From Myxococcota bacterium (lineage in GTDB: Bacteria > Myxococcota_A > Polyangia > Polyangiales > JANWZI01): DNA of 64,000 bases. The translations under genes were made by a program, and so were the position numbers. Of this stretch, positions 4,869-59,154 are shown piece by piece; the first letter of the stretch is position 1, and each line of letters starts with the position of its first letter. The notes beneath the pieces are model-generated. The model had not been told where the DNA came from, made no database searches, and saw only the letters and a list, made by a program, of their open reading frames with translations. The stretch lies in contig JANWZI010000007.1 of the NCBI GenBank assembly GCA_025054695.1, forward strand, positions 333 through 64,332. The letters run 5' to 3'.

Positions 4869-4898
4869 CGACTCCGACTCGAACTCAGGCTCCGGCTC
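4869..4898. repeat. Short hexamer array (5 units, CGACTC/GAACTC/AGGCTC)
   Basis: Direct reading. Same unit family as the larger arrays. Lies in a divergent intergenic gap. Confidence 0.5.
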
Positions 4899-5255
4899 GT
4901 TCGCGATCTCGGGCCCCGTCTCGAGCTCGCGCCGGGGCTTGGGCCCGAACCGGGGTACGCTTCGAACCTCGAACGGCCAACCGCGCCGGGCCCTCGTCGT
5001 CCCCCCAGGCCAGACGGAACCTCTTCGTCCGCCGCGCCACCACCCGGCGCCGTTGCTCTGACGCTCGCTGTCGGCTTTCCGACGATCCGCCAACTCCAGA
5101 CGACGAGATCCATCGGCTTCCACGCGGTCGCGTCTTTGGCACGCTCACTGCTGTCGTGGCGAACCGTGAGCCTCTTCGACTCGTCTGATCCGTGCGCGCT
5201 CGTTTCTTGCCCTCTGCTCGACACGCCTCGACTCCTCTCCGCCACCGCCGAGGCG

Positions 5256-6167
5256 GTGCGCCGTCCCACGGCGGACACGTCGCGTCCGTTGCCGCCGCCC
5301 GACGCACCCCATCACACATCGCCCCGCGCGCGGACTACTCGCCGCGAGTCGTCGAGCCACTTTCCTCGTCGAGTTGCGTTCGACGTCGTCGGGCCCTCAC
5401 CCGCGCCGCTGCGCGCCCGCGCGTATGGAGTCGCTCCGAGCCCATGCCCCCGCAGTACGAATCCGGCCGCGTCGGCATCCCGTCGCGACGACCTGCTCCG
5501 CCGGGGATTGCCGCTGGTGCGACGGATCGCGTTCCGGCTCGCGCGGAGACTGCCCCCGTGCGTCGACGTCGGAGACCTCGTCGGAGCCGGCTGCGAGGGA
5601 CTGCTGCGCGCCATCGCGAGCTACGATGCGGCGCGCGACGCCGCCTTCGAGGCCTACGCGGAGATGCGCATCCGGGGGGCGATGTTCGACGAGTTGCGGC
5701 GGTTCGACCCGGTCACCCGTCACGGTCGGCGACGGATGGCGCAGATCGGGCGCACGATCCGCGCGCTCGAGTCCCATCTCGGGCGGCCGCCGGACGACGA
5801 TGCCGTCGCGGAGGCTCTCGGCATCGACATCGAACGGTATCACCGGGTCTGCGACGACCTTTCACGCGCCCCCGCCCTTGCGTGCTCCGGGGAGGTCGAT
5901 CCGGACAGCATCGCGGACCCCGCACACGAGGACCTGGAGCCGTTCGACCGTGCGTACCTTCGGAGCAAGCTCACCGCCGTGATCGCGACGCTGCCCGAAC
6001 GCCAACGACGTATTCTCGTCCTCTACTACGCCGAGCAGCGCACGCAGGCCGAAATCGGACGGCTCCTCGGGATCACGGAGAGCCGCGTCTGCCAGGTCCT
6101 CGCTGAGAGCGTCGCGCAACTGCGCATCTTGCTCGCGGGATCCGACGAGGTTCCGGCAGCGGCCTGA
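5256..6167 (+). CDS. FliA/WhiG-family RNA polymerase sigma factor (start uncertain)
   Basis: C-terminal part of track ORF 3987..6167. Sigma regions 2-4: LPLVRRIAFRL, DLVGAGCEGLLRAIASYD, FEAYAEMRIRGAMFDELRRFDPVTR, HTH QAEIGRLLGITESRVCQV. In-frame start candidates are only GTG 5256, TTG 5289 and TTG 5508. The conserved core begins near 5490. Confidence 0.8.
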   Translation: MRRPTADTSRPLPPPDAPHHTSPRARTTRRESSSHFPRRVAFDVVGPSPAPLRARAYGVAPSPCPRSTNPAASASRRDDLLRRGLPLVRRIAFRLARRLPPCVDVGDLVGAGCEGLLRAIASYDAARDAAFEAYAEMRIRGAMFDELRRFDPVTRHGRRRMAQIGRTIRALESHLGRPPDDDAVAEALGIDIERYHRVCDDLSRAPALACSGEVDPDSIADPAHEDLEPFDRAYLRSKLTAVIATLPERQRRILVLYYAEQRTQAEIGRLLGITESRVCQVLAESVAQLRILLAGSDEVPAAA

Positions 6168-6193
6168 TCGGGACCACCGCATCAGCCGCACGC

Positions 6194-6279
6194 GGCCTCG
6201 GATTCGGGCTCGGACTCCGGCTCGTGCTCGGATTCGGAACTCCCCTCGGTCAGCTCAACCCATGTGACCGCCGCTGTCA
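6194..6279 (+). repeat. Hexamer array (9 units GGNCTC) plus conserved right module ending in CCGCCGCTGTCA
   Basis: Array at 6194-6247, then GGTCAGCTCAACCCATGTGACCGCCGCTGTCA. The terminal 12 nt are the reverse complement of TGACAGCGGCGG. Confidence 0.8.
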
Positions 6280-6376
6280 GCCCACAGTGGCGTCCGTCCC
6301 CGCGTGGTACCGTCGTCGGCGGACACAGATGGACGGTCGCGGAAGGGATTGACAGCCCCGCGGGGGCCGCCCGACG

Positions 6377-6775
6377 ATGCGCGCGATGGCCGGACGCCCC
6401 CGCATCGTCGTGGCCGACGACGACCTCGAGATTCTCGCGCTCCTCAAGCGACATCTGGTGCGCATGGACGCCGAAGTCGTCGAGGCGAGCGACGGGGAGG
6501 AGGCCTTGCGTGCCGTGCGGCGGCACCGCCCGGATCTCGTGATCCTCGACGTGATGATGCCGGGCATGAGCGGGTGGGAGGTCTGTCGCGCGATCCGCGA
6601 CGACGAGTCGCTCGCGCGCACCGGCGTTATCATGCTCACCGGCATCGGCGAGCGACTCAACGAGATGACCTCGCCGCTGTACGGCGCGGACGAACACCTC
6701 GACAAGCCCTTCGATTTCGGGGAGCTCGATCAGAAGATCCGCAACGTGCTGCGCGCACGGCGCGAGGAGGGCTGA
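6377..6775 (+). CDS. Single-domain response regulator (CheY-like receiver)
   Basis: Acid pocket VVADDD, phospho-acceptor Asp in LVILDVMMPG, conserved IMLTG and LDKPF. No output domain. Confidence 0.9.
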   Translation: MRAMAGRPRIVVADDDLEILALLKRHLVRMDAEVVEASDGEEALRAVRRHRPDLVILDVMMPGMSGWEVCRAIRDDESLARTGVIMLTGIGERLNEMTSPLYGADEHLDKPFDFGELDQKIRNVLRARREEG

Positions 6776-7226: not shown

Positions 7227-7313
7227 TACGCGGTCGGGCCGGGACTCGGGCTCGGCCCCAGACTCGCGCTCAGGCTTGGTCTCGGACTCTGTCTCGGACT
7301 CGATTTCGGACTC
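7224..7313 (+). repeat. Hexamer array (12 units GGACTC family) starting at the stop codon of the upstream gene
   Basis: TGATACGCGGTCGGGCCGG followed by GGACTC GGGCTC GGCCCC AGACTC ... at 7242-7313. Confidence 0.8.
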
Positions 7314-7353: not shown

Positions 7354-10143
7354 TCAGTCCGCCGCGTCTTGGATGAACCCGCGTGCGATGTGCGGAGGAG
7401 CGGGATGGGGACCCGGAAGCGGCCGGATCGCGACGGCCGTCACCTTGAATTCCGGGCACCCCGTGAGCGGATCCCTCCCGGGTCCCGTCAGCACGTTCGT
7501 CCGCAGCTCCGGGAAGTGGAACGCCAGGAACAACTGCCCGGGCGCGACCCGACGCGACCAGCGTGCCCAGACCTGCACGCGCCCCTGCTCGCTCTCGACC
7601 TCGCAGCGCGCGCCGTCGGCGATCCCGAGCCGCGCGCCGTCGTCGGGATGCAGCTCGAGCATGTCGGTGCCCTGCAGCGCGAGGTTCGGCGTCCGGCGCG
7701 TCTGGGTGCCCGCGTTGTAGTGCGCGAGCTGCCGCCCGGTGACGAGAAGGAACGGATACCGCTCCGAAGTCTGCTGGCGCGAGGGCGTCCATTGCGCGCA
7801 GTGCAGCGCCGCGCGCCCCGAGGGGGTGTCGAATCGCTCCTCGTACAGGATGGGCGTTCCCGGATGCTCCGCGTCGAAGACCGGCCACTGCAGTCCCTGG
7901 GTCCCCAGCCGCGCGTGGGAGACGCCGCGCAGCTCCGGCGTGAGCGCCGCGATTTCATCCATGATGTCCGCCGCGTCGCGATGCGGCAGCGGACGACCCA
8001 GGCGCGCGGCGAGCTCGAGCAGCACGTCGATCTCCTCGCGCACGGCGCCCGGAGGCTCGACGACGCGCCGCACGAGCTGGATCCGCCGCTCGGCGTTGGT
8101 GAACGTGCCGGTTTTCTCGAGGAAACTGGCCCCGGGCAGCACCACGTGCGCGAACTGCGCCGTGCGGCACTCGAACAGGTCGTGCACGACGAGCAGCTCG
8201 AGCGCGCGAAGGGCCTGTTCGACCTTGTCGACCTCCGGCTCGCTCTGCGCGATGTCGTAGCCCTGCACGTACAGGGCGCGCAGCCGACCGTCGCGCGCCG
8301 CCTCGAGCATTTTGGGTAGGGTCATGCCCGGCTCCTCGGGGAGCTTCACGCCCCAGCGCGCCTCGAACGGCGCTCGCGTCGCCGGGTCGGCGAGCGGCCG
8401 ATACATCGTCAGATACGTGGGCAACGCGCCGACGTCGCTCGAGCCCTGCACGTTGTTCTGACCGCGCAGCGGATGCACCCCGCCGCCGCGCCGGCCCACG
8501 TTGCCCGTCAGCAGCGCGAGGTTGGCCAGACACCGCACCCCGTCGACGCCCTGTGCCTGCTCGGTCACGCCGAGCCCGTACGCGATGAGCGCGGGCCGAT
8601 GGCCGCCGTACAGGTGCGCCGCACGCTCGATGTCCGCGGCCGGCACGCCCGTGATCGCAGCGGCGCGCTGCGGCGTCCACGACTCCAAGTGCGCCGCGAG
8701 CGACTCGAATCCGTCCACGCGCGCGGTCAAGAACGCCCGGTCGACCAGCCCGTCGCGCACCAGCACGTGCGCGAGCGCGTTGTACAGGGCGACGTTGGTA
8801 CCCGGCCGAAGCTGGAGGAACACGTCCGCCAGGCGCACCAGCTCGATCCGCCGCGGGTCGGCGACGACGAGCCTGGCGCCGCGCAGCACCGCCTGCTTGA
8901 TGCGGGCGCCGAGCACCGGATGGCCTTCGGTCGGGTTGGCGCCCGTCACGAAGAGGACCGCGGCCTCGTCGATGTCCGAAAAGCTCCCCGTGCTCCCCGA
9001 GCGCCCGAACGAGCGGATGAAGCCCAACGAAGTCGGCGAGTGGCAGACGCGCGAGCAGTTGTCGACGTGGTTAGTGCCGACGACCGCACGCGCGATCTTC
9101 ATCACGAGGTAGTTCTCCTCGTTCGTGCAGCGGCTGCTCGAGACGAAGCCAATGGCACCCGGTCCGTACCGCGCCCGGATCTCGATCAGGCGCTCGGCCA
9201 CGAACGACAGCGCCTGCTCCCAGCTCGCCTCGCCCAGGGTTCCGTCCGCGCGGCGCAGCAGCGGCGCGCGCAGTCGCGCCTCGGAGAACGCGTACCGGAA
9301 GGCGAACCGGCCCTTGAGGCACGCGTGCCCGAGGTTGCTCGGCCCGTCCGGCGCCGGGTGCATCGCGACGACGGCTCCGTCCCGCACGACCGCGTCGAAC
9401 CCGCAGCCGACGCCGCAATAGGCGCACGTCGTCCGCACGACGCGATCGACGGGGGCCCCCTTGCCCAGGCCTCGGTCCTCGATGGCGCCCGTCGGACAGC
9501 TCGCCGCGCACGCGCCGCACGAGACGCACGCGCTGGCCTCGAACCCCACGCCCGGACCGGCCGCGATGACCTCGTTCCAGCCGCGCCCCGCATACGTGAG
9601 GGCGAACGTCCCCTGCACCTCGTCGCACGCGCGAACGCACCGCCCGCACAGGATGCAGCGCTCCAAATCGAGCGCGAGGTAGGGATGGCGCTCGTCGCGT
9701 CTCGCCGCTCGTCGCGGTCCGTCGAAGCGCGAGCCGTGCAGCCCGAAGTGACGCGCGACGGCGTCGAGCTCGTCGGCATTGTAATCTGGATTGCAGTTTG
9801 CGTCGCCGGCCGCCGCAGCCCGCTCGGGCGGCCGCACCTCCGAGAGCACGAGCTCGACGACCGTGCGCGCGACGCGGCGCGCGACCGGGTCGTCGGTCCG
9901 CACGACCAATCCCGGCTGCGCGGGTGTCGTGCACGCCGCGACGGGCCCGCGCGCCCCCTTCACGCCCACCAGGCAAACGCGACAGCTGCCGACGGCCGAC
10001 AGGTTCGGCTGCCAGCACAGCGTCGGAACGTACACGCCCGCGCGCCGCGCCACCTCGAGGAGGCTTTCGCCCGGCCGCGCCCGAACCGTCTTGCCATCGA
10101 GCTCGATGTCGAACGTGGGTGTCTTGCCGTTCGTCGGGCTCAT
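7354..10143 (-). CDS. fdhA: NAD-dependent formate dehydrogenase alpha subunit (molybdopterin, Cys-type)
   Basis: Internal ATG ([17 protein letters not shown]) of track ORF 7354..11937. N-terminal 2Fe-2S region, 4Fe-4S motifs [11 protein letters not shown] and [12 protein letters not shown], Mo-bisPGD domain with active site [14 protein letters not shown] overlap with the upstream gene. Confidence 0.92.
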
Positions 10144-11927
10144 GCGCGGACCTCCCCTGCCATCGGTTCCCCGAGCAGCTCCGCTCCGAAGTGGCGGAAG
10201 AGCGACGCAATGGGATCGGGAATCGCCCCACCGTGCGCGCACAACGAACCGAGCCGCATCGTCTCGAGCAGCTCGAGCAACAGCTCCGCATCCGCTCGCC
10301 TCTCGGCGGCGGGGCGCGCCGGGTCGAGCCGCCGCACGATCTCGAGGGCGCGGTGCGTGCCGATGCGGCACGGGAAGCACTTGCCGCACGACTCGTCGGC
10401 CGCGAACTCGAGCAGGTGCTCGGCGATGGCGCGCGCGCTCGTGCGCTCGTCCCACGCGACCACGCTGCCGTGACCGAGCAGCGCCCCGCGCGCGGCCATC
10501 TCCTCGAAACCCAGCCGCACGTCGAGCTCGTGCGCGGGGAGGATCCCGCCGAGCGGGCCTCCGACCTGGACGGCCTTGATGCGGTGCCCGACGCGCAGCC
10601 CCCCGGCCACCTCCTCGACGAGCCCGCGCAGCGTGAGACCGAGCGGCACCTCGTAGATGCCCGGCCACTCGAACAGACCGTTGAAGCAGAAGCACTTGGT
10701 GCCCCGGCTCTGCTCCGTGCCCCACGCGGCGTAGGCGTCCGCGCCGTGCCTCAGAATCCAGCCGAGGTTCGCGAGCGTCTCGACGTTGTGCACCACGGTG
10801 GGCCGTTCGAACAGCCCGCGCTCGGCCGGATACGGCGGCCGCGCCGTCACCATGCCGCGCAGCCCTTCGAGCGAGCGCAGCAGCGCCGTCTCTTCGCCGC
10901 ACACGTACGATCCGGCGCCTTCGACGACGTCCACGTCGAACGCGAACGGCGTGCCGAGCACGCGCTCGCCGAGCAGGCCGGCCGATCGGGCCTGCTCGAC
11001 CGCGTCGCGCAGCCGGGGCGTCGCGTGCGGATATTCGCTCCGTACGTAGACCACGCCGCGCCGCGCGCCGATGGCCCGGGCGCAGATGGCCATGCCCTCG
11101 AGCAGCGCGAACGGATCGCGCTCCATCAGCGCCTTGTCGATGTAGGAGCCCGGATCGCCCTCGTCGCCGTTGGCGACGACGAACGCCTCGTCGGCCGCGC
11201 GCGCGTGCGGCGCCGCGAGCCTCCACTTGCGCCCCGTCGGAAAGCCCGCTCCGCCACGTCCGCGCAGCCCGGAGCCTTCGAGCACGGCGATGACCTCGTC
11301 GGGCGTCATCTGCAACGCGCGCCGCAAGCCCTCGAAGACCCCGTGGGCGCGCGCGACCTCGAGCCGCGTCGCGTCCAGACCCTGGTGCCGCAGGCGCTCG
11401 AGCACGATGGCCGGGCCTCCGCCCACGACGCACGGCGGCACGGCCGCGCGCTGCGCGTCCGGCAGTTCCGGCGCGTCGAGCGATCGAGCCAGCCGCTGCG
11501 CCGCCTTCTCGTCGAGGCGAGCGACGACGTGCCGCTCGACCGCGGCGACCGGCGCCGCGTGACAGAAGCCGAGGCAGTAGACGGGCTCGAGCGAGACCGA
11601 TCCGTCGGGCGACGTCTGTCCCAATCGCAGTCCGAGCGCCCGCTCGAGCCAGCGCACCGGCGCATCGCCCGCCTCGGCGTGACATGCGCTCCCACGGCAG
11701 ACCCGCACGCGCCGCCGTCCGCGAGGCTCGGTCGACAGATCCCCGTAGAACGTCGCGACTCCCCAGACGGCCGCCTCCGGCTGCCCGCAGGCCCGGGCGA
11801 CGGCGCGGACGTCGTCGGCGGTAATCACGCGCCGCTCCTCCATGACCTGCTTGAGCCGCTGAAGCGCGGTGCCGTGTACGTCGAAGCGATCGGGGCCGCG
11901 CCGCAGCGCGATGAGATTGTGTGACAC
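10140..11927 (-). CDS. Formate dehydrogenase diaphorase subunit, fused NuoE-like and NuoF-like domains
   Basis: GTG start. NuoE-type 2Fe-2S (CRGSACH, CLGFCH) followed by a NuoF-type FMN site [13 protein letters not shown] and 4Fe-4[11 protein letters not shown]. Confidence 0.9.
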
Positions 11928-12009
11928 CGTCGCCCATCGTAGCGCAGGACGACGCGCGAGGCGTCCCTCGCCACTCCCATGGGGCGCTCCATGAACGCGG
12001 AACGCGTTG

Positions 12010-12228
12010 GAGTCCGAGGCGGAGCCCGAGTCCGAGTCCGAGTCCGAGTCGGAGTCCGAGTCGGAGTCCGAGTCCGAGTCCGAGCCCGAGGCCGAGTCCG
12101 AGTCCGAGTCCGAGCCCGAGTCCGAGTCCGAGTCCGAGTCGGAGTCCGAGTCCGAGTCCGAGTCCGAGTCCGAGCCCGAGTCCGAGTCCGAGTCCGGGCC
12201 CGAGCCCGAGTCCGACCCGATGCCGTCA
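12010..12228 (-). repeat. Largest hexamer array (35 units; plus strand GAGTCC/GAGCCC/GAGGCC/GAGTCG)
   Basis: Units counted at 12010-12219, 26 of them containing GAGTC. On the minus strand the array follows the phoD stop directly (TGACGGCATCGGGTCGGACTCGG). Confidence 0.95.
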
Positions 12229-13710
12229 GGGTCCCGTCCGGCGGAGCCACGGCTCGCCGTGGCGCACCTCGAAGCGCGCCGCCACGCGCTCGCGACCCCC
12301 GTCGGGACGCTCGACGTCCTCGACGAACCGATGCTCCGCGAGCAGCCGCTCGGGCGTGATCTCGAGCCATAGCCATCCTCGGTGCTCGGCGTCGACGAAC
12401 TTCGTCTCCGGGCTGGCCGCGCGGACCATGGCTTCGAACGCGCGCGCCTCGGCGCCGAAGAGATTCGGCGAGCTGACGGCGGGTGTCATCAGCTCGACCG
12501 CAACCGAGCCGCGTCCGGTCGCCGGGTCGTACGTGCGGCGATCCAACGGCACGTCCTGCGCGAAGCTCTTGTGGCCATCGCCACACAGAAACACCACGCC
12601 CTCGATTCGCTCCGACGCAACGAGCTCGAGCAAGGCATCGCGCTCCACCGCCCACCCGTCCCACGCGTCGAGGTTCCAGAACTCCGGGTGCGGGGAGAAC
12701 TGGACCGCTCCCGCGACGAGCTTCCAGCGCGCCCGGGACGCGCGAAGTCCTTCGAAGAGCCAGCGGCGCTGGCCCTCCCCGAGCATCGAGCGGCCCGGCG
12801 CGCGCGCCTCGCGTTCGTCGGCCGGCGGACGGTCGCGCTGCAAGCGCGTGTCGAGCACGAACAGCTCGACCAGATCCCCGAATCGCAGCGAACGCCACAA
12901 CGGCTCGACCGATCCGAGCGGCATCCACTCCGCGTAGGCGCGCGTCGAGGCGCGCAGGCGCTCGGCCCACGGTCCTTCGGTGGCCTCGTCGTGCCACGGC
13001 GAGCCGCCGGGCCAGGCGTCGTTGGCGTGCTCGTGATCGTCCCACGTCGCGACCAGCGGGTGCATGCCGAGCAGCGCCACCAGGTCGGGGTCGAGCCGGT
13101 AGTGGGCGTGCCGGCGGCGGTAATCGTCGAGCGAGCGGCATTCGTGCGGCGGATCGTAGGCGCGCAGCGAGCCGTAGAACCCGTCGGCCACCTCGTAGAT
13201 GAAGTCGCCCAGGTGCAGCACGGCGTCCAGATTGGTAACCTGAGATACATTTCGATAGACGTGGAAGAACCCGTGCGCGTAGCTCGCGCACGACAGCACC
13301 GCGAGCCGAACGGACGGCACCTCGCCCTCCCCCGCCGTGCGCGTCCGCCCGACGGCCGAGCGCTCGCCCCGAACCGTCTCGAACGCGTAGTACAGCGTGC
13401 GGCCCGGGGGCAGCCCATCGACTTCGGCGCGCACCGTGTGACCCGCCGACTCGAACGCGACCAGCTCGCGACTCGCCACCACGTCGCGCAACGCCTCGTC
13501 GGTCGCAACGAGCAGCCGCAGCGGCTCGTCCCCCACCGCCTCGGCCAGATGCGTCCAGAAGACCACTGCATCCGCTCGCGGATCGCCCGTCGCGACTCCG
13601 CGCCGAAAACGGCCCCACGTCGGTGAGCGACCGTCCGCCCCGCACGCTCCGAGCCACGTTCCGGCCATCGCGCCGACCACCCCGCGCAACAGCTCCCTGC
13701 GCAACACCAT
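12226..13710 (-). CDS. phoD: Alkaline phosphatase D family protein (PhoD)
   Basis: Tat-like N-terminus (RRELLRG). PhoD metallophosphatase motifs [21 protein letters not shown]. Confidence 0.88.
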
Positions 13711-13755: not shown

Positions 13756-13866
13756 GAGCTCGGGCTCGGACTCAGGCTCGGACTCTGTCTCGGTCTCGCA
13801 TTCGGGCCCCCTCGTCACGAGGGGCCGTGGCCCCGCGCTCCGCTCAACCGCCCGTGGAGGTCAGTT
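13756..13866 (+). repeat. Hexamer array (8 units) plus degenerate right module overlapping the gltX 3 prime end
   Basis: Array at 13756-13803. The flank contains GCTCAACC..GTG..GTCAG, similar to the module at 6250-6279. It includes the gltX stop (GGTTGA on the minus strand). Confidence 0.65.
13805..13836 (-). terminator. GC-rich hairpin downstream of gltX (possible intrinsic terminator, no U-tract)
   Basis: CCCCTCG-TCA-CGAGGGG 7-bp stem (13808-13824), with an overlapping GGGGCC..GGCCCC alternative. It begins about 8 nt after the gltX stop on the minus strand. Confidence 0.35.
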
Positions 13867-15292
13867 GACTCGGGCGGGGGTCGGCAGCCCGCAGCCGCGC
13901 CACCGTGCGCTCCTTGCCAAGCACCGCCATGACCTCGAACAGGCCGGGGCTCGCGGTGCGACCGGTCAGCGCGACCCGCGCGGGCTGTGCGACCTGCTTG
14001 AGCGATCGCCCCGTCTGTTGAAGCCACTGGTGAACGCGCGCTTCGAGCGTGGCCGCGTCGAACGGCTCGACCGTTTCGAGCAACGCGGCGAGCTCCTCGC
14101 GCGCCGCGCGCGTCGATTCGACGAGGAATCGCGCGGCCGCCTGCTCGTCGATCCGCGGCGGCTCACGGAAGTAGAAGTCGACCATGTCGGCGACGTCCAC
14201 GAGGGTGACGGCGCGCGTCCGCACGGTCGCGACGGCCGCCTCCAGCGTGCGCCGATCCGGCCGCAGCCCCGCTCGCTCGAGAAACGGCATGGCGAGCTCC
14301 GCGATGCGTGCGTCGGAGAGCGCGCGCAGGTGCTCGGCCTGGATGTAGGCGAGCTTTTTCGGATCCCAGCGCGCGGCGGTCGCGCCCACCCGCGACCAGT
14401 CGAAGAGCGCGACGAGCTCGTCTCGGCGGAACACTTCCTGGTCGCCGTGCGACCAGCCCAGGCGCGCCAGGTAGTTGAGCAGCGCGTCGGGAAGGTAGCC
14501 CGCGTCGCGGTACTCGGTCGTGCTCACCGCTCCGTCGCGCTTGCTGAGCTTCTTGCCGTCTTGCCCGAGGATCATCGGCAAATGCGCAAACCGCGGCGGA
14601 GTGCGGCCGAGCGCCTCGTAGAGCAGGAGCTGCGGCGGCGTGTTGACGACGTGGTCGTCGCCGCGCGCGACGAGCGTGATGCCCATTTCGACGTCGTCGA
14701 CGACGCACGCGAAGTTGTAGAGCGGCAGGCCGTTCTGACGCAGCAGCACGAAGTCCTGCTGCTGCTCGTTGGGGACGTCGATGCGGCCCTTGACCAGATC
14801 CACGAAGCCGGTGCTGCCCGTGCGCGGCGCGCGGAGCCGGATGGCATACGGGGCATCGGAATGGGGTGGAGGCCGACGACCGTCCCGCCACGGGCTGACG
14901 AACCGGAAATCGCGCCCGCCACGCGCCTCGTGGGCGGCACGGGCCGCCTCGACTTCCTCGCGCGTCGCGTAGCAGCGGAACGCGTGGCCCGTCGCGACGA
15001 GCCGCTCCGCGTACGCTCGATACAGCTCGAGCCGCTCGCTCTGGAAATACGGTCCGTGCGGTCCGCCGACTTCGGGCCCTTCGTCCCAGTCGAGGCCGAG
15101 CCATCGCATCGATTCGAGGATGACCGACGTCGACTCACGGAGGTTCCGATCGACGTCGGTGTCCTCGATGCGGAGGATGAACGAGCCGCCGTGTCGTCGC
15201 GCCCACAGCCAGTTGAAGAGCGCCGTACGCACGCCGCCGATGTGCAGGTAGCCGGTGGGAGATGGGGCGAAGCGGACGCGGACCTCACTCAT
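13844..15292 (-). CDS. gltX: Glutamate--tRNA ligase
   Basis: Internal ATG (MSEVRVRFAPSPTGYLHIGG) of track ORF 13844..15340. HIGH (HIGG) and KMSKS (KLSKR) motifs. Confidence 0.95.
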   Translation of the reverse strand: MSEVRVRFAPSPTGYLHIGGVRTALFNWLWARRHGGSFILRIEDTDVDRNLRESTSVILESMRWLGLDWDEGPEVGGPHGPYFQSERLELYRAYAERLVATGHAFRCYATREEVEAARAAHEARGGRDFRFVSPWRDGRRPPPHSDAPYAIRLRAPRTGSTGFVDLVKGRIDVPNEQQQDFVLLRQNGLPLYNFACVVDDVEMGITLVARGDDHVVNTPPQLLLYEALGRTPPRFAHLPMILGQDGKKLSKRDGAVSTTEYRDAGYLPDALLNYLARLGWSHGDQEVFRRDELVALFDWSRVGATAARWDPKKLAYIQAEHLRALSDARIAELAMPFLERAGLRPDRRTLEAAVATVRTRAVTLVDVADMVDFYFREPPRIDEQAAARFLVESTRAAREELAALLETVEPFDAATLEARVHQWLQQTGRSLKQVAQPARVALTGRTASPGLFEVMAVLGKERTVARLRAADPRPSQLTSTGG

Positions 15293-15354
15293 GACGCCGG
15301 GCGGGCAATCGTGCCGACATCGGTCCGTCCGCGCAATCACGGCGCCATGACGGC

Positions 15355-15514
15355 GGATTCGGGCTCAGGCTCCGACTCGGGCTCGGACTCGGGCTCGGGC
15401 TCCGACTCAGCCTCGGGCTCGGACTCGGACTCGGTCTCGGGCTCGGGCTCGGTCTCCGACTCAGCCTCGGACTCGGGCTCAGGCTCGGACTCGGACTCCG
15501 ACTCGAACGACTCC
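15355..15514. repeat. Hexamer array (about 25 units GGACTC/GGGCTC/GGTCTC/CGACTC/AGCCTC)
   Basis: Units counted at 15355-15504, between the gltX start and the SDR stop. Confidence 0.95.
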
Positions 15515-15571
15515 CGGTCGCAATCGGGCGTCGTTCAGGCGTCGTCCTTCGTCCGACGCGGCAGCCCAGGC

Positions 15572-16396
15572 TCACGGCTCGACCGGCTGGGCTCGCCGCA
15601 GCCAGCGGGCGAGCGGCGCGTACAGCAGGCGCAGCACCGCGCGCGGCGTCAGCGCACCCAGAGCCAGCAGCAGCCTCATCGCGAGCCCCGGAACGACGAG
15701 CGGGCGACCGCGCTCCAGGGCGCGAATCGCGATGCGCGCGCACCGTTCGGCCGAGATGACGAGCGCGCGCGGAGGGCGGCGGCCCGTGAAGTTACCGACG
15801 TGGGACTCGAACTCCGTATCGACGGGGCCCGGACAGATCTGCGTGACGCGGATCCCCGCCGGTCGCAGCTCGGCGGCCAGCGCTTCGGCGAAGCCTGTGA
15901 CGAAGTGCTTCGTGCCGATGTATGCCGCGAACCCCGGCAGCCACTGCAGGCCGAAGCCGCTGGAGACGAAGAGCAACCCGCCGCGGCCGCGCGCCACCAT
16001 GGCCGGCAGCAGCCGCCGCGTGAGGTACGCCACGGCCGTCGCGTTGAGGGCGATCATCCGCTCGACCTTCGACCAGTCGCATCGCTCGAACAGGCCGAAG
16101 TCGCCGAAGCCCGCGTTGTTGACGAGAACGTCGACGGCTCCGACTCGCCTCTCCAGCGCCTCGAGCATTGCGTCGGTGCTGCCGCGATCCGCGAGGTCGG
16201 CCGGTAGCACGTGCACGCGCAGTTCCGGTCGCTTCGCGCAAAGCTCCTGGGCGAGCGCCTCGAGTCGGTGGACGCGGCGGGCCACGAGCACGAGGGCCTC
16301 CGCGCGCGAAGCGAGCTGCCGTGCGAGGGCCTCGCCGATGCCGGAGGAGGCCCCGGTGATCAGGACCGTCGTTCCGTCGAGTCGCCAGCGCGCCAT
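15572..16396 (-). CDS. SDR family oxidoreductase
   Basis: TGASSGIGEAL, NNAG and YIGTK (YxxxK) motifs. Confidence 0.88.
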   Translation of the reverse strand: MARWRLDGTTVLITGASSGIGEALARQLASRAEALVLVARRVHRLEALAQELCAKRPELRVHVLPADLADRGSTDAMLEALERRVGAVDVLVNNAGFGDFGLFERCDWSKVERMIALNATAVAYLTRRLLPAMVARGRGGLLFVSSGFGLQWLPGFAAYIGTKHFVTGFAEALAAELRPAGIRVTQICPGPVDTEFESHVGNFTGRRPPRALVISAERCARIAIRALERGRPLVVPGLAMRLLLALGALTPRAVLRLLYAPLARWLRRAQPVEP

Positions 16397-16451
16397 GGGT
16401 GAGCCGTAGCACGCGCGCGCCGGACGTCGGGCGGCCGGCGCTGCGAACGTC

Positions 16452-17477
16452 TCACCAGTCCACGATGGCGGCCCCCCACGTGAAGCCGCTGCCGAAGGCC
16501 ACCGCGGCCACCTTCATGCCGCGCCGCAGTCGGCCCTGCTCGACCGCCTCGGCGAGCAGGATGGGAATCGTGGCCGCCGTGGTGTTGCCGTATCGCTCGA
16601 TGTTGCTGACGAACTTGTCGGGGGGCGCGCCGATCTGCTCGCGGATGAACTCGTTGATGCGGAGGTTGGCCTGGTGGAACACGAACAGATCGACGTCGTT
16701 CAGGGTGAGCCGGTGCGCGGCGAACACCTGCATCAGCGCCCCGATCATGCGTTCGACGGCGTGCTTGAAGACCGCGCGCCCGTCCATGTGCGCCCACATC
16801 ATCTCCGGGACGACCTGACCGACGCCGCGCTCGTCGACGGGAATGAACGGCCGCCGCCGCATGTCCCAGACCCGCTGACACAGCGTCTCGGCGTATCGGC
16901 CGTCGGCCCCGAGCGCCCAGCCCCGCACGCCTCGGTCCTCGTCGGTCGCGCTGACGACGACTGCACCCGCGCCGTCGCCGAAGAGCGAGGCGACCTGACG
17001 GCCTCGCGTGGACAGATCCAGCGCCGCCGAATGCACCTCGGAGCCGACGAGCAACACGTGCCGGTGCTGCCCGCTCATCACGAGCGAGGCGGCGGTCGCG
17101 AGCCCGTAGACGAAGCCGGAGCACTGATTTCGCACGTCCAGCGCGGGCACGAAGTGCCCGATGTCGCAGAAGCCCATCTTCTGCTGCAGATAGACGCCGC
17201 TACCCGGGAACGCGCTCTCCGGCGAGAGCGTCGCGAATACGATCATGTCGATGTCGCGCAGCGTCAGGCCCGCGTTGCGCAGCGCCATCTCGGCGGCCGG
17301 CTTCGCCAGGTCCGCCGGTCCCGTCCCCTCGTCGGCGAACCGGCGCTCGACGATCCCGGTCCGCTGGCGGATCCACTCGTCGGTCGTGTCGATACCGTAC
17401 ACGTCACGCAGCTGGGAGTTGGTGACGACGCGCGGAGGCACGTAGTAGCCGGTGCCCGAAATGTACGCGTTCGGCAT
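16452..17477 (-). CDS. 3-oxoacyl-ACP synthase III family protein (second FabH-like paralog)
   Basis: KAS III Cys-His-Asn contexts NQCSGF, FHQAN, GNTTAAT. 341 aa. Distinct from the canonical fabH at 47336..48337. Confidence 0.85.
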   Translation of the reverse strand: MPNAYISGTGYYVPPRVVTNSQLRDVYGIDTTDEWIRQRTGIVERRFADEGTGPADLAKPAAEMALRNAGLTLRDIDMIVFATLSPESAFPGSGVYLQQKMGFCDIGHFVPALDVRNQCSGFVYGLATAASLVMSGQHRHVLLVGSEVHSAALDLSTRGRQVASLFGDGAGAVVVSATDEDRGVRGWALGADGRYAETLCQRVWDMRRRPFIPVDERGVGQVVPEMMWAHMDGRAVFKHAVERMIGALMQVFAAHRLTLNDVDLFVFHQANLRINEFIREQIGAPPDKFVSNIERYGNTTAATIPILLAEAVEQGRLRRGMKVAAVAFGSGFTWGAAIVDW

Positions 17478-17567
17478 GAGAATCTCGTCTACCGTCCGGC
17501 TGCCCCAAGGACAAGCGGCCCGCTCCCCCCCGACCCGATCGGTGCTCGTTGCGTCGGCCGATCGCGC

Positions 17568-18176
17568 TCAGCGTCGTTGCAGCCACCGCACGCCCGCACC
17601 GGCCAGCACCCAGCCGTGGGGAGCTCCGGGATCGCGTCCCCCGGCGTGAACCACCAGCGCACCCTCCAGCTCCACGAAGACGGCCCAGCGCGGCGTCAGG
17701 AGCCACGACGATCCCGCCGCCAGCGCCATGCACGACGTGTGCATCAGGCCGTGCGAGGGATCGCCGACCAGATTGGCGCCGAAGTGTTCCATCCAGCTTT
17801 GCCGCGACGCATCGTGGATGTGCCACACGCGCAGGCCGACGTGCGGCCACCAGCCGTCGAGGCGTGATTGCCAGCGTGGTCCCGCCGCCAGACGGATCCA
17901 GCCACGCGGGTGGGTTCCGAAGCTCACGCCGACACCCCCCACGACGTCGATGGCCCAGCTCGGATGCAGCTCGATGCCGAGCCGCACGGCGCCTTCGGCT
18001 CCGACGCTCGACGTCGAGACGGGCACGACGAACGCCGTCGAGAGTGCCGGCTCCAGGTGAACGGAGTCCGCTTCGGCCGTCGCCGACCGAGTGAGGGTCG
18101 CCGCGCATCCCGCAACGGCCGCGAGCGTCGCCACCAACGGGCGAAGGCGGTCCGCGACGCCCACCGGCGCTCCCAC
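17568..18176 (-). CDS. Hypothetical lipoprotein / beta-rich envelope protein
   Basis: C-terminal part of track ORF 17568..18476. GTG starts at 18176 or 18164 give lipobox LAAVAGC. Gly/Trp-rich sequence of unknown family. Confidence 0.5.
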
Positions 18177-18267
18177 GGTCGAAGCATGCGGGCTCGTTCG
18201 GGTCGCGTCCACGTCTCCGTCGGCAAGCCGTATGCAGCGCTCACCGCGAGGGTTGGGTTGCTCGATC

Positions 18268-18330
18268 GCGGCTCCGACTCGCCCTTGGGATCCGTCCCGG
18301 AATCGGGCTCGGACTCCGATCGGGCTCGCG
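18268..18330. repeat. Degenerate hexamer array
   Basis: CGGCTC CGACTC ... GGAATC GGGCTC GGACTC CGATCG GGCTCG. Same gap as the composite element at 18377. Confidence 0.5.
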
Positions 18331-18376
18331 CGCGATCCACGGCGCAAGCCCGCGCCGTCACCGATCCCGTGCCGAT

Positions 18377-18513
18377 TGACAGCGCCGGCCAGTGGGTTGA
18401 TCGCGCTTTCTACTCGGGCTCGGGGTCGGTCTCGGCCTCGGACGCGGGCACGGACCCGGTCTCGGTCTCGCAACACTCCCCGGCCACGTCAAGCAACGTC
18501 ACCGCCGCTATCA
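18377..18513 (+). repeat. Composite MITE-like element copy A: left module, 9-unit hexamer array, right module, 12-nt inverted termini
   Basis: TGACAGCGCCGGCCAGTGGGTTGATCGCGCTTTCTACTCGG, array at 18416-18469, then CGCAACACTCCCCGGCCACGTCAAGCAACGTCACCGCCGCTATCA. Mobility unproven. Confidence 0.8.
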
Positions 18514-19199: not shown

Positions 19200-19444
19200 A
19201 TTCGGAATCGCCGTGAAAGTGTTGCGAGCCCGAGACCGATCCCGAGCCTGAACCTGAGCCCGAGCCCGAGTCCGAGTCCGAGACCGAGTCCGTGCCCGAG
19301 CCCGAATCCGAGTCCGAGCCCGAGTCCGTGCCCGAGCCCGAATCCGAGTCCGAGCCCGAGTCCGTGCCCGAGCCCGAATCCGAGTCCGAGTCCGAGCCCG
19401 AGACCGAGTGGAATCGCGATCAACCCACGTGGCCTGCGCGGTGA
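19200..19444 (-). repeat. Composite element copy E (reverse orientation) with a 30-unit array including three 36-bp higher-order repeats
   Basis: Array at 19226-19405. Minus-strand left module TCACCGCGCAGGCCACGTGGGTTGATCGCGATTCCACTCGG. The other end shares CGCAACACT and then diverges. Confidence 0.75.
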
Positions 19445-19539
19445 GACGGCACCGGCCAGAGGCGCCGACGGCCCACCCCTGGGATGCGGCTGGGTGCTCC
19501 CCTCGCCACTGTCCGACACGCCGCGCAACTTCGTCGAGG

Positions 19540-20154: not shown

Positions 20155-20208
20155 GAGACCGAGACCGAGACCGAGTCCGAGTCCGAGTCCGAAACCGGGT
20201 GCGAGCCC
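20155..20208. repeat. Hexamer array (9 units GAGACC/GAGTCC)
   Basis: Direct reading, between a gene start (20139) and a gene stop (20233). Confidence 0.85.
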
Positions 20209-20232
20209 ACAGCCGCTCGGGCGCCGGCCGGC

Positions 20233-44340: not shown

Positions 44341-44418
44341 GAGACCGAGTCGGAGTCCGAGTCCGAGCCCGAGGCCGTGCCTGAGTCCGCGTCGGAGTCC
44401 GCTACCGAGTCAGAGTCC
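44341..44418. repeat. Hexamer array (13 units GAGACC/GAGTCG/GAGTCC)
   Basis: Direct reading, in the convergent gap between thiE and rpiB. The flank on the rpiB side contains GGTTGA, which includes the rpiB stop. Confidence 0.85.
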
Positions 44419-49227: not shown

Positions 49228-49390
49228 GTGACAGCGCCAACGGGTTGGTCGGTGGTGCGGACCGAAGCTGCGACTCCGAGCCCTGGACCGACCCCGAGTC
49301 CAAGTCCGAGCCCGAGCCCGACTCCGAGTCCGTTTCCGATTCCGAGCCCGAGCGCGTGCCCGAGTCCGAGACCGAGGCCGAGTCCAAGTC
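49228..49390. repeat. Terminal-motif variant TGACAGCGCCAA plus a 20-unit hexamer array
   Basis: TGACAGCGCCAACGGGTTGGTCGG at 49228, array at 49271-49390. An inverted TGTCA..TGACA pair lies at 49193-49233. Confidence 0.75.
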
Positions 49391-49417
49391 CCCGATGGAG
49401 GCATCGATGCGCGACGC

Positions 49418-56398: not shown

Positions 56399-57505
56399 TC
56401 AACCGCTCGCCCCGGGTCGCCCCTCGCTGACGCGCGTCCGAGGCAACCAGCTTCCTCCGTGCTGCTCCCGGAGCCAACGGAGCATGTGCTCGCGCAGCGC
56501 AAAGCGCAGATCGAAGAGCTGCCCGACCTCGGCGCTCGCCGTCAGGCGCAACTGCACCGCGCGATCGGTGCAGTCGCTGACCACGCAGCGGGCATGCCGG
56601 CGGCTCCAGGCCGGATGGCCCTCGAGGAATCGCATCATTTCCGCGCGGATGGCCTCCACGTCGGCCGTGAAATCCACCCAGAGGAACACGATCCCGACGA
56701 GGTCGCCCGGCTTGCGCGTCCAGTTGACGAACGGCCTGTCCAGAAACGTCGTCAGCGGAACGACCATCCGGCGCTCGTCCCACAATTGCACGAGCGCGTA
56801 CGTCAGACCGATCTCCTCGACGGTGCCCCATTCGCCTTCGATCACCACCGCGTCACCGACGCGCACCGGCTGGGTGAGCGAGAGCTGCAGCCCCGCGAAG
56901 ACCGAACCGAGCGAGCGCTGCGCGGCCAGGCCGAGCACGAGCGAGGCCGCGCCCGCGGATGCGAGCACCGACAGACCGAGCGAGCGCACGACGTCGAACT
57001 GCACGAGGGCGAGCCCCACGCCGACGACGACGACGACCACGCGCAGCACACGTCCGATGACCTGCGCCCGCGTCCGAAGCGCGCGCACCGAGTGCGGATC
57101 GACCCCCGCGTCCTGCGTTCGCCGCTCGATCGCCCACTGCACGAGGTCGACGAGCTTCCAGGCGAAGAACGCCGCGCCGAACGCGAGCAGCAACCGGCCC
57201 GCGAACGTCGCGACGAGCCGCGGGCCGGGCACGAGCCGCGGCAGCTCGTAGGCAAGACGCAACAGGGCCGCGAACAGACCGAAGCGAACCGGGGCGACGA
57301 AGAGGCGCACGGCCGTGTCGTCCCAGTCCGCGCGCGTGCGCGCGGCCAGCCGGCGCGCGCTCGCCCCCAGAAGGGCCGAGACGAGGCGGCCGAACGCATA
57401 GGCGACCGGAACCGCGAGCAGGAGCCAGAGCCACTGCCAGGCCGGAGCGCCGCCCACCGAAACGCCGAGGAACGCGAGCCAGGTCGGGAGATCGACGTCG
57501 AACAC
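56399..57505 (-). CDS. Mechanosensitive ion channel family protein (MscS-like)
   Basis: TM helices followed by the MscS beta-domain motif VRVGDAVVIEGEWGTVEEIGLTYALVQLWDERRMVVP. Confidence 0.9.
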   Translation of the reverse strand: MFDVDLPTWLAFLGVSVGGAPAWQWLWLLLAVPVAYAFGRLVSALLGASARRLAARTRADWDDTAVRLFVAPVRFGLFAALLRLAYELPRLVPGPRLVATFAGRLLLAFGAAFFAWKLVDLVQWAIERRTQDAGVDPHSVRALRTRAQVIGRVLRVVVVVVGVGLALVQFDVVRSLGLSVLASAGAASLVLGLAAQRSLGSVFAGLQLSLTQPVRVGDAVVIEGEWGTVEEIGLTYALVQLWDERRMVVPLTTFLDRPFVNWTRKPGDLVGIVFLWVDFTADVEAIRAEMMRFLEGHPAWSRRHARCVVSDCTDRAVQLRLTASAEVGQLFDLRFALREHMLRWLREQHGGSWLPRTRVSEGRPGASG

Positions 57506-57622
57506 GCGCCTCGTTTACATCGAAACGCAAAGGCGCGGTCGAGGCAGGCCCGAGCGGGTCAGGGCGCAGCCCAGGACGCTCGCCGGTGCTGAGCGGGATT
57601 TCGCGGCCAAGGCCGAAGCCGC

Positions 57623-57783
57623 GCCACGTCAACCCGCCCCCGAGCTCCCAGCGGCGGTCACGTTGCGTGACGTGGCCGAGGCCTGCTGCGAGGCCGAGTC
57701 CGAGACGGAGGCCGAGACCAAGGCCCAGGCCGAGACCAAGACCGAGTAGAAGGCGCGATCAACCAGACTGGCCGGCACTGTCA
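57623..57783 (-). repeat. Composite MITE-like element copy D (reverse orientation)
   Basis: Minus strand reads TGACAGTGCCGGCCAGTCTGGTTGATCGCGCCTTCTACTCGG, then a 12-unit array (57678-57749), then CGCAGCAGGCCTCGGCCACGTCACGCAACGTGACCGCCGCT. An extra inverted GCCACGTCA lies at 57623. Confidence 0.8.
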
Positions 57784-58338
57784 CTTCTCGCTCACGCGGC
57801 GCATCGGCACGGGGCGTCCCGCGGCGCGCAACGCAGCGGCGATCGCCTCGCCCAAATCGGCCCGATGCCCGTACCCCGCGGGCAGCTCGTAGACGCCTCG
57901 TTCACCCGTAGGCTGCCGGAACCGAATCCGTACGAATGCATGGACGACGTCGTTCGAGGGCACGACGTATTCGACGGCTTCGATGCGCTCGACGGGAATC
58001 CACGTCCGACGCGGCGTCGCATCGCCCGCGAAGTATTGATGCACGAACCCACTGTCGCGCACCTCGACGAAGAGCCGTCGGCGCGTGCGACGCTCCCGGA
58101 TCCAATCCTTGGCGAACCCCGCGCACGCCACCACCACGGCGACGCCGACGAGCGCCGTGCATCCCAATCCGGCCTTCTCGGTCCACGTCAGCTCGTACCA
58201 CGCGGCGGGCTCGACCTCCGGTAACCCTCGCGGTCGCACGTCGAATCCCCGGTGGAGCACGAGCGCCACCCCGACGACGACGAGCGCGGCAAGTGCCGCC
58301 GCCACGGCCAACGCGATCCCCACCACGAACGCCACCAT
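57781..58338 (-). CDS. Hypothetical membrane protein (2 TM plus cytosolic domain)
   Basis: Internal ATG (MVAFVVGIALAVAAALAALVVVGVAL) of track ORF 57781..58800. Its stop codon is the TGA of a repeat-element terminal motif. Confidence 0.55.
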   Translation of the reverse strand: MVAFVVGIALAVAAALAALVVVGVALVLHRGFDVRPRGLPEVEPAAWYELTWTEKAGLGCTALVGVAVVVACAGFAKDWIRERRTRRRLFVEVRDSGFVHQYFAGDATPRRTWIPVERIEAVEYVVPSNDVVHAFVRIRFRQPTGERGVYELPAGYGHRADLGEAIAAALRAAGRPVPMRRVSEK

Positions 58339-58439
58339 CGGCCAAGAGGGTGGCGTCTCCAGCACGCGGAGATGAACGCGGTCGCGGGCGGCCGATTGCC
58401 CCGTGCCCGTCTCGGCCCTGTCCTGCACCCGGTCGTCGA

Positions 58440-58865
58440 TCACGACGAGCGCGTCCGACGCAAGCGCACGCGCGTGCGACGATCGTAGCATGCGCGCGCT
58501 CGCTGGATGGCGGGACGGTACCGCTCCGCCCAAGCGGCCAGCCCCATGATCGGCTCGAGGAGCGTGCGCCCGAGCGGAGTCAGCGCGTACTGAACGCGCG
58601 GAGGCGCCGTGGGCAGCACGGTCCGCTTGACGATCCCGTCGCGCTCGAGTCCCCGCAGCGTCGCGGCGAGCATGCGCTGCGAAATCCCCTCGATCGACCG
58701 ACGCAACGCGCTGAACCGAAGTGGGCCGTCGCGCAGCAACGCCACGACGAGCACGCTCCACTTGTCGCCGATGCGCTCGAGCACGTCGCGCACGGGACAT
58801 GCGTCGCCCTGATCGACAGCGTTCTCACGACGGCCTGCGTCTCGACGGGTCGCGGCACCGCGCAC
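58440..58865 (-). CDS. HxlR family transcriptional regulator
   Basis: CPVRDVLERIGDKWSVLVVALLRDGPLRFSALRRSIEGISQRMLAATLRGLERDGIV winged-helix core. GTG start at 58865. Confidence 0.85.
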   Translation of the reverse strand: MRGAATRRDAGRRENAVDQGDACPVRDVLERIGDKWSVLVVALLRDGPLRFSALRRSIEGISQRMLAATLRGLERDGIVKRTVLPTAPPRVQYALTPLGRTLLEPIMGLAAWAERYRPAIQRARACYDRRTRVRLRRTRSS

Positions 58866-59154
58866 GGTCGGTGCCGAGAGTGTAACCCCGGCCGACCCGA
58901 CGCGAACGTACGAGCGTCGACCTGGCGCGACCCGTCCCCATCGAAACCGACCGCATCCATCACTCGAGCACGCGGGGCTGAGGGGTGTTTCGAGCCCGAG
59001 CCCGAGCCCACCGCACGCGACTGGGTGGTGCCTGCTCACAATCACCGTGTTGGGCACGATCCTCGCCGCGGTCGTGTTCCTCAGACCGCCCGCCCCCCTC
59101 GTCGCCGAGGTTTTCTAGCTGCTGCGTTGTTGACACCCGGGACCCGACACTCCG

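Follow-up and report, generated by a model that had tools for sequence, protein, structure and literature searches.

Heterogeneous tandem arrays of short units are known from the (GGGAATC)n heptamers of Xanthomonas and the STRR heptamers of Nostoc, which form arrays of 2–26 units at ~186 loci per genome, lie in intergenic DNA in 89–93% of cases, and use both strands equally (PMC4692102). Such repeats are on average 28 nt from the upstream open reading frame (ORF) and 160 nt from the downstream one and are mostly found between co-oriented ORFs, with ~16% in convergent and 7–8% in divergent gaps; they do not occur at the same genes in related species, the majority are transcribed, and those of Xanthomonas are generally not tied to mobile elements (PMC4692102). 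Studies of units of 5–9 nt have been reviewed as rare and the function of such units as unknown (PMC4692102, PMC2670836), and the function of STRR sequences was described as still unknown (PMC2670836). Here, we analyzed a 64-kb stretch of contig JANWZI010000007.1 from a Myxococcota metagenome-assembled genome (MAG; GCA_025054695.1, positions 333 to 64,332; 71.5% G+C; hereafter, the window), in which an original prediction made from the sequence alone had noticed intergenic arrays with a 6-nt period. On balance, we favor the explanation that these arrays are a lineage-specific, STRR-like hexamer repeat, partly seeded by a carrier resembling a miniature inverted-repeat transposable element (MITE), enlarged by slippage or unequal exchange, and kept on the stop-codon side of the gaps.

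In total, 19 arrays with a strict 6-nt period and the unit GAG-N-C-S occupy 1,713 nt across 18 intergenic gaps (arrays are numbered by their start coordinate, e.g., 18416). With Tandem Repeats Finder, practically all the coordinates given in the original prediction yielded arrays of period 6 and 0% indels, and a regular-expression search found 21 runs of at least three perfect GAGNCS units. The three-unit pattern had 82 matches in the window, none of them in genes, and 0.00 matches in 100 dinucleotide-preserving shuffles; the predicted set of 19 arrays in 18 gaps, ~1.7 kb in all, was confirmed. Among 275 phased units, G, A, and G made up 95, 91, and 88% of the first three positions, C 95% of the fifth, and C or G 83 or 9% of the sixth, while position 4 was distributed as T 45, C 30, A 16, and G 8%. 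The most common unit was GAGTCC (81 copies), followed by GAGCCC (47), GAGACC (28), GAGTCG (13), and GAGGCC (12), an order that differs from the one first given, in which GAGGCC preceded GAGACC and GAGTCG. The earlier view that the arrays are not simple slippage products of one unit held. Some boundaries had to be revised: array 18268–18330 had been read out of phase and is weak, with 8 units of which 4 are perfect; arrays 4869–4898, 23622–23639, and 58992–59009 have merely 3–5 units each; and the first 12 nt of 57678–57749 and the last 12 nt of 6194–6247 are conserved flank and not array.

Outside the arrays, the array hexamers occur at 0.8–1.07 times the expected frequency, and two-unit matches were found only six times in 62 kb with both strands counted. 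The genome favors the –CG forms of the hexamer, and the arrays are made of –CC forms, which this genome contains less often. A compositional by-product, an outcome that the original prediction had named as refuting it, is ruled out by the expected frequency of the hexamers outside and by the genome's preference for the –CG forms. Avoidance or enrichment of the hexamer as a restriction site was ruled out by the same observed-to-expected ratio of ~1.

The arrays resemble the STRR heptamers of Nostoc and Calothrix (GGGGA(C/T)T and others) and the Xanthomonas heptamers in consisting of short head-to-tail units with one or two degenerate positions and in being dispersed, intergenic, placed toward the upstream ORF, and depleted in divergent gaps. 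Unlike STRR1–3 and GGGNATC, they have a period of 6, an unrelated unit, and no G-quadruplex motif, the canonical form of which was found in no array, ruling out a G-quadruplex as their basis. As the period is 6 and not 7, the arrays would stay in frame if they were inside genes. They are also longer on average than the heptamer arrays, their host is a Myxococcota MAG, and a subset of them, unlike the Xanthomonas repeats in general, forms part of an element that apparently has inverted repeats at its termini. The genome of Xanthomonas campestris is ~5 Mb in size. On that basis, the 19 arrays per 64 kb represent a density ~8-fold that of the 186 repeat loci per X. campestris genome.

To place the arrays relative to genes, we mapped the independent gene calls of a near-identical record at the National Center for Biotechnology Information onto the window and confirmed the main genes by Pfam. 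Intergenic DNA amounts to 7,644 nt, or 12% of the window, and the arrays take up 22% of it. All 19 arrays lie outside the independent gene calls, as had been predicted, and arrays are present in 18 of the 36 gaps of at least 40 nt, matching the predicted half, and in 17 of the 27 gaps of at least 100 nt. Since the period is a multiple of three, the exclusion from genes is not attributable to frameshifting, which argues for selection on placement. Over the 76 kb of sequence read from this genome, array-like DNA was intragenic only once, in locus L322, to the left of the window: a weak stretch at 20185–20226, with 4 of its 7 units perfect, falls within a hypothetical gene called there (477 amino acids) and would read Ser-Pro. 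In the same locus, 4.1 kb at 14423–18513, ~2.5–6.6 kb left of the window, contain neither called genes nor hexamer arrays.

In 12 of the 14 tandem gaps, the array lies closer to the stop codon of the upstream gene than to the start codon of the downstream gene (median 40 versus 132 nt; p = 0.013). Three convergent gaps hold arrays. Only one of the six divergent gaps does so, and with the weakest array, in comparison with 17 of the 30 tandem or convergent gaps, a difference that alone is not significant (p = 0.18). The suggestion that all gap types are used alike was therefore not upheld, given the divergent gaps and the preferred stop-codon side, and a role of the arrays in changing the promoter–gene spacing is unlikely, the promoter side and the divergent gaps being avoided. 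The orientation relative to the upstream gene is mixed, with GAG-type arrays in 6 gaps and CTC-type in 8, and the prediction was correct in this respect. No arrays were found within the liv, thi, and fatty-acid synthesis operons; instead, they lie at operon boundaries, and the operons NuoEF-FdhA, thiSGE, and yceD-rpmF-fab-acpP-rpiB are bracketed by arrays with none inside. The bias toward upstream stop codons and away from divergent gaps matches selection against promoter disruption.

The arrays are also clustered regionally: among gaps of at least 100 nt, 13 of 14 have an array at 4.7–32.4 kb and 4 of 13 at 32.4–64 kb (p = 0.0013), which could reflect local spread or a different tolerance. 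Ten gaps of at least 100 nt have no array, seven of these holding the 3′ end of a gene. A DNA adenine methylase of the Dam family (MethyltransfD12) is encoded at 38593–39486, preceded by a 304-nt array-free gap and with no obvious restriction partner adjoining.

The origin of the arrays was approached through their flanks, compared with the arrays oriented by the GAG strand. A subset shares a 5′ flank, CTGACAGCGGCGGTCACGTTGCTTGACGTGGCCGAGGGGTGTTGC, and a 3′ flank, GAGTAGAAGGCGCGATCAACCCACTGGCCGGCGCTGTCA. In nhmmer profile searches, each of the two flanks was found four times with E from 1e-12 to 1e-15, and the two profiles matched each other's flank in reverse orientation. The outermost 12 nt of the element appear to be inverted repeats with the consensus TGAYAGCGSCGG ... 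CCGSCGCTRTCA, and all four perfect matches of the terminal 12-mer in the window, together with one of the three matches of 11/12, are located at element ends. Against an empirical background, the flanks were clear at five arrays (6194, 18416, 19226, 32194, and 57678) and marginal at 58992; flank similarity seen by eye around most arrays failed this test except at 5–8 of them. For the remaining ones, no alternative common flank was found.

The elements of this kind, called class A here, include three complete copies of 137, 138, and ~224 bp. The first spans 18377–18513 on the minus strand and consists of a left inverted repeat (IR-L) TGATAGCGGCGG at 18502–18513, a linker, an array of 9 units at 18416–18469, the flank GAGTAG...GCGCGATCAACC, and a right inverted repeat (IR-R) at 18377–18388 that reads TGACAGCGCCGG on the plus strand. 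Directly downstream of it, on the same strand, is the degenerate array 18268–18330 (8–10 units), beyond which the 3′ flank recurs in a weak second copy. The second, at 57646–57783 on the plus strand, has a degenerate IR-L TCCCAGCGGCGG, the 5′ flank, an array of 9 units at 57690–57743, the 3′ flank, and an IR-R at 57772–57783. The third, at 32134–32391 on the minus strand, carries the IR-L TGACAGCGCCGG at 32364–32375 within its 5′ flank, an array of 23 units at 32194–32331, and a 3′ flank at 32134–32193 in which the IR-R is degenerate. An 18-nt exact inverted match connects 13660–13677, in the phoD 5′ region, with 32133–32150, just outside element 32194.

The other copies are partial. At 6194–6295 on the minus strand, the 5′ half of an element is retained, with the array at 6194–6235, a linker, and the conserved 5′ flank at 6236–6295 (nhmmer E = 3.6e-13), which contains the terminal 12-mer TGACAGCGGCGG at 6268–6279 with 12/12 matches; the 3′ side is degenerate. 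The element at 19213–19465 on the plus strand has a truncated 5′ flank, GTGAAAGTGTTGC, an array of 30 units at 19226–19405, and a conserved 3′ flank at 19406–19465. Degenerate termini were found exactly at the class-A distance beside two further arrays: array 49271–49391 (20 units on the plus strand, flanked by the start of YceD and the stop of hyp369) has an IR-L TGACAGCGCCAA with 10/12 matches 42 nt upstream, and array 13756–13803 (8 units on the minus strand, flanked by the start of PhoD and the stop of GltX) has a terminus with 9/12 matches on its 3′ side. The minimal array 58992–59009 on the plus strand, three copies of GAGCCC, has a marginal match to the 5′ flank (p = 0.009). The 9 kb left of the window contain one more array cluster and a further degenerate copy of the element, nested between arrays. 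Of the 19 arrays, no fewer than 5, and probably 8, form the core of an element of 140–220 bp.

Conserved flanks and apparent terminal inverted repeats point to a mobile-element origin, as judged from the sequences. The terminal TGA of the element serves as the stop codon of hyp144 (18511–18513) and, as read from the minus strand, of hyp236 (57781–57783), which suggests that elements 18416 and 57678 may have inserted into the extreme 3′ ends of these genes. With 5–8 copies in 64 kb and one outside, the elements are small, non-coding, and dispersed, as MITEs are. In common with the bacterial MITEs (Correia/NEMIS of Neisseria, RUP, and ERIC), class-A elements are ~140–220 bp long, have no ORF, and apparently end in inverted termini 5′-TG...CA-3′; their copies are intergenic, dispersed in both orientations, and sometimes nested, with termini that abut or overlap gene ends. 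Unlike in MITEs, the core is a hypervariable hexamer array, most arrays of the window have no termini, and no target-site duplication was found at three copies. REP/BIME sequences are similarly dispersed, mostly just past stop codons, in both orientations and as mosaics. Unlike these, the class-A flanks have no imperfect palindrome of 20–40 nt, and the folding of the whole element is unremarkable (z = –0.4); identity with REP/BIME was rejected for lack of a palindromic unit in the flanks.

Under the explanation that we favor, a MITE-like carrier, moved in trans by a transposase, would have seeded the hexamer repeat around the genome. Once in place, the arrays would grow and be renewed through slippage during replication or through unequal exchange, changing by 6 nt or a multiple of it at a time, and the unique flanks would meanwhile decay and leave "naked" arrays. 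Copies would survive only at sites where no coding sequence or promoter is disrupted. The arrays would be mainly selfish or neutral DNA, and any effect on the host would be expected to act on double-stranded DNA because it is independent of orientation.

Among the arrays that would be the products of such decay, or that are otherwise without a clear element, the naked ones are found at 7242–7313 (minus strand, 12 units, in the convergent gap between hyp133 and the FdhA-like gene), 15355–15504 (minus, 25 units with a 30-nt higher-order period, between the GltX start at 15292 and the SDR stop at 15572), 20155–20208 (plus, 9 units, occupying most of the 99-nt gap between a TPR gene and DUF6918), 22160–22237 (plus, 13 units, in the convergent gap between ArgG and thiolase), 26474–26629 (plus, 26 units, between the transaldolase start at 26406 and the Rce1-like stop at 26675), 29016–29141 (plus, ~21 units, starting 2 nt past the DUF6986 stop and ending 179 nt before the dnaK ATG at 29321), and 44341–44418 (plus, 13 units, in the convergent gap between ThiE and RpiB, where the fatty-acid synthesis operon ends). 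Array 4869–4898 (minus strand, between hyp171 and a sigma factor), the one case in a divergent gap, is imperfect, with 3 of its 5 units perfect, and a minimal array of 3 units lies at 23622–23639 (minus), with the start of thiolase on one side and the stop of NAD kinase on the other. Array 12010–12219 (plus), the longest and purest, begins 6 nt past the PhoD stop codon and has 35 units, of which 33 are perfect, with 74% GAGTCS.

A process without any carrier, in which the arrays were born independently in each gap through a lineage-specific bias toward hexamer slippage and the flanked copies are coincidence or secondary capture, seems quite unlikely to us. It would account for the 11 of 19 arrays without recognizable flanks, and the higher-order periods and the polymorphism of ±2 units described below show slippage or unequal exchange at work. 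The GAGTC core is, moreover, a quasi-palindrome, and some arrays fold better than shuffled sequences as single-stranded DNA (z down to –3.3). The folding is mixed across the arrays, however, with z from +1.4 to –3.3 and unremarkable values for most, and slippage driven by hairpins was for that reason rejected. The proto-repeat is rare, with six two-unit matches in 62 kb, and the –CC hexamers are the rarer forms; arrays arising separately would not all end up with the same five positions fixed; and in 5–8 cases, the array lies inside, not beside, a conserved element with inverted termini.

To follow the dynamics of the arrays, we compared the window with contig JAVQYH010000005.1 of GCA_033577305.1, a Myxococcota MAG that is 99.84–99.96% identical. 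The GltX encoded in the window has a 100% identical counterpart in "MAG: Myxococcota bacterium," and the window proteins also match a second MAG (MCS67974xx; 73.5-kb contig) and Logan contigs of run SRR15826901. The only array differing between the strains is 12010–12219, with 35 units in the window and 37 in GCA_033577305.1; its ends are identical, and its interior is reshuffled. Several arrays have higher-order periods of 12, 18, 24, 30, and 36 nt with 0% indels in Tandem Repeats Finder, and array 19226–19405 has a 36-nt higher-order repeat of 89% identity. Such periods show apparent growth through the duplication of multi-unit blocks. The earlier proposal of a slippage hot spot thus gained support for the longest and purest array and lost it for the other 18, which are identical between the assemblies. 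Simple sequence repeats at contingency loci are comparable in having short tandem units able to change in copy number; those, however, consist of homogeneous units of 1–5 nt in genes or promoter spacers and vary strongly between strains, whereas the arrays are heterogeneous, located 3′ of genes, and strain-identical in 18 of 19 cases. Elsewhere in the comparison with GCA_033577305.1, single-nucleotide polymorphisms were clustered at 1422–1506 (5), 12502–12634 (7), 36058–36066 (4), and 56855–56873 (4), a pattern resembling tracts of recombination, or else effects of population consensus, in two MAGs from a single species.

Several observations weigh against a mobile carrier followed by turnover in place. 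Eleven arrays have no trace of the flanks, and their descent from the carrier is something we infer. The inverted repeats are imperfect in the single copies, reaching 10/12 in the best, and a generic inverted-repeat search did not pick up the element termini. There was no consistent direct repeat indicative of a target-site duplication around arrays 18416, 32194, and 57678, although one of 2–3 bp is still possible with three copies, and the 76 kb of the genome contain no transposase gene or autonomous relative. Of the 19 arrays, 18 are identical in two or three assemblies, among them those of 20–30 units (array 26474, for instance, is the same in three), and array turnover is slow at the time scale of the strain comparison. 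If the MAGs are based on short reads, arrays longer than a read, including the interior of the 210-nt array, could be misassembled. The strongest objection is that neutral turnover fails to explain the conservation of positions 1, 2, 3, and 5 at 88–95% across 18 loci with position 4 free, and this pattern suggests sequence-specific recognition or function.

Owing to this conservation of the unit at 18 loci, an orientation-independent protein-binding role stays alive. The arrays could then be functional cis-elements at the ends of transcription units, a periodic platform for an oligomeric protein that acts as a terminator or insulator, an explanation that we regard as possible but doubtful. Equally tentative are the candidate binders: Rho, which loads on YC dinucleotides, a TRAP-like binder of GAG triplets, or a nucleoid roadblock protein. 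A protein-binding platform was proposed for the TAACTGA repeats of Beggiatoaceae and cyanobacteria, which are abundant, intergenic, and patchy across lineages (PMC4679880). Those heptamers usually come in 2–6 copies a few nucleotides upstream of start codons (PMC4679880), the side that the arrays avoid.

A function at transcript ends would fit the strong conservation of five of the six unit positions and the placement at operon boundaries, ~40 nt (median) from the upstream stop in tandem gaps. Hairpins followed by T-runs, as in intrinsic terminators, did not exceed the level of shuffled sequences in the 20 kb scanned (10 versus 6.3 ± 2.7), and none was in any gap; simple hairpins adjoining the arrays were not systematic, and intrinsic terminators or hairpins beside the arrays were rejected as a common feature. 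The lack of such terminators in the scanned gaps would also fit a function at transcript ends, and so would the YC dinucleotide that the unit repeats at 6-nt intervals whichever way it is transcribed, as CC from the GAG strand or UC from the CUC strand. Most of the analogous repeats in Xanthomonas are, moreover, transcribed (PMC4692102). The length of the arrays, however, varies from 3 to 35 units, and 10 gaps of at least 100 nt do without them, 7 of these with a gene's 3′ end. The regional clustering (13 of 14 versus 4 of 13 gaps; p = 0.0013) is unexpected for a general terminator, the excess of C over G typical of Rho-loading (rut) sites is lacking, and arrays are absent from all the sampled relatives. 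A further possibility is that the arrays are loading or blocking platforms independent of orientation, their GAG/CUC and CC bases offering a dinucleotide or triplet for recognition every 6 nt, and that a MITE was domesticated to supply a high-GC genome with its general terminators or insulators; this we consider unlikely.

With a period of 6, each unit also makes a codon pair, reading Glu followed by Ser, Pro, Thr, or Ala on the GAG strand (E-x) and Asp, Gly, Val, or Ala followed by Ser on the other strand (x-S). As both frames share wobble positions, coding had to be tested. A start codon is missing from the stretch that separates the array from the stop before it in 4–5 cases for the E-x frame and in 8 cases for the x-S frame, and arrays 7242, 19226, and 22160 have an upstream start codon in neither frame. 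No array continues the frame of an adjacent gene; array 29016–29141, for example, is in frame neither with DUF6986 (stop at 29013) nor with dnaK (ATG at 29321). The array before the NuoEF-like gene is open in the frame of that gene, and the first start codon there is the annotated one, downstream of the array. Codon usage gives a further measure: genes prefer NCG over NCC 1.6–2.7-fold, whereas the arrays have 83% NCC and 9% NCG, the E-x frame thus running opposite to codon usage; the x-S frame on the opposite strand fits the codon usage of the genome. We conclude that the arrays are, as a class, non-coding. Dipeptide repeats of the form E-[SPAT] or [DGVA]-S joined to the neighboring genes were ruled out by the frame, start-codon, and codon-usage tests and by the gene calls.

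Translation of the arrays, as tiny acidic peptides or as low-complexity tails or leaders of the neighboring proteins, is consequently highly improbable. The same holds for its most specific form, a class-A peptide GTG-GCC-GxG-xxx-TGy-TGC-(GAG-NCS)n-GAG-TAG, or M-A-x-x-C-C-(E-x)n-E-stop. That the unit is a perfect codon pair with the variation concentrated at position 4, that GTG and TAG are kept in three class-A copies, that the x-S frame fits the genome's codon usage, and that similar arrays of other taxa lie inside annotated genes would all agree with translation. On the other side, no gene is called on any array, and start codons are absent from many, in both frames in three. The class-A copies 6194 and 19226 have no start codon, one copy has lost the TAG stop, and codon differences in the supposed N-terminal part are mostly non-synonymous; an acidic Cys-Cys peptide was rejected on these grounds, its start and stop not being kept in all copies. 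No Shine–Dalgarno motif could be read from the sequence, the NCC bias of the E-x frame is opposite to codon usage, and the orientation relative to neighbors is mixed.

Two further features of the window concern reading frames and coding repeats. At 7354–11937, an ORF of 1,527 codons is open in one frame, and the NuoEF-like gene (10140–11927), which by Pfam domains and gene calls overlaps the start of the FdhA-like gene by 4 nt, lies in another, a configuration that shows how long spurious ORFs originate at 71% GC. An imperfect (CCG)21 run at 59342–59404 and an 18-nt Pro-rich repeat at 61979–62032 are inside the large hypothetical genes hyp883 and hyp860; in contrast to the hexamer arrays between genes, both have the look of usual low-complexity coding sequence.

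As an RNA, the element received no support. A search of Rfam, which the original prediction had proposed, gave no match at the gathering score and a single chance match at E = 0.7, and the RNA folding of two complete elements was no better than that of shuffled sequences (z = –0.4). An RNA gene or a long stem around the array was rejected given these results and because the differences between copies, inspected by eye, break the putative pairs without compensation.

To assess the distribution of the arrays, we studied 80 loci of GltX relatives (1.3 Mb, including high-GC Myxococcota; at most 60% identity among the matches listed) and found no comparable array and one match of 3 units. The nearest sampled relatives by GltX identity, a 2.1-kb JGI contig (75%), two further contigs (66%), and Sandaracinus amylolyticus (64%), are likewise without arrays. 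The class-A flanks were absent from 3.3 Mb of other fetched loci and from plasmid and phage collections. In BLAST searches against plasmids and phages, only the array part matched, and the matches fell inside genes annotated as protein-coding in other taxa.

When viral and metagenome sequences were scanned for the pattern, mostly single arrays per contig were returned, the viral matches being mostly one-unit microsatellites, and no metagenome match was closely related to the source genome. One metagenome contig (Ga0310345_10000051, 73% GC) has a different arrangement, with a gene-poor region of 3.4 kb at 2627–6024 in which long arrays are crowded together, among them (GAGGCGGCAGCG)n and one of 54 GAGACC/GAGTCC units; it has no significant protein-level match to the window. 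Among the full-text papers searched, none had tandem GAGTCC or GGACTC as a bacterial repeat. From these sequence comparisons, the arrays appear to be lineage-specific. The earlier suggestion of an undescribed repeat class holds for the unit sequence, which has neither an Rfam match nor a report among the papers searched; the kind of repeat, however, is known from the heptamers of Xanthomonas and Nostoc (PMC4692102).

The arrays provide a far denser example of dispersed short repeats, present in half of the gaps and making up 22% of the intergenic DNA, in a phylum for which we found no such report. In high-GC MAGs, arrays of this kind may fragment or skew both assemblies from short reads and gene calls, because codon-based gene finders extend ORFs through the arrays, as seen here with a codon-score finder. 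By linking the arrays directly to a putative carrier with terminal inverted repeats, the window also offers a testable route by which repeat families may spread.

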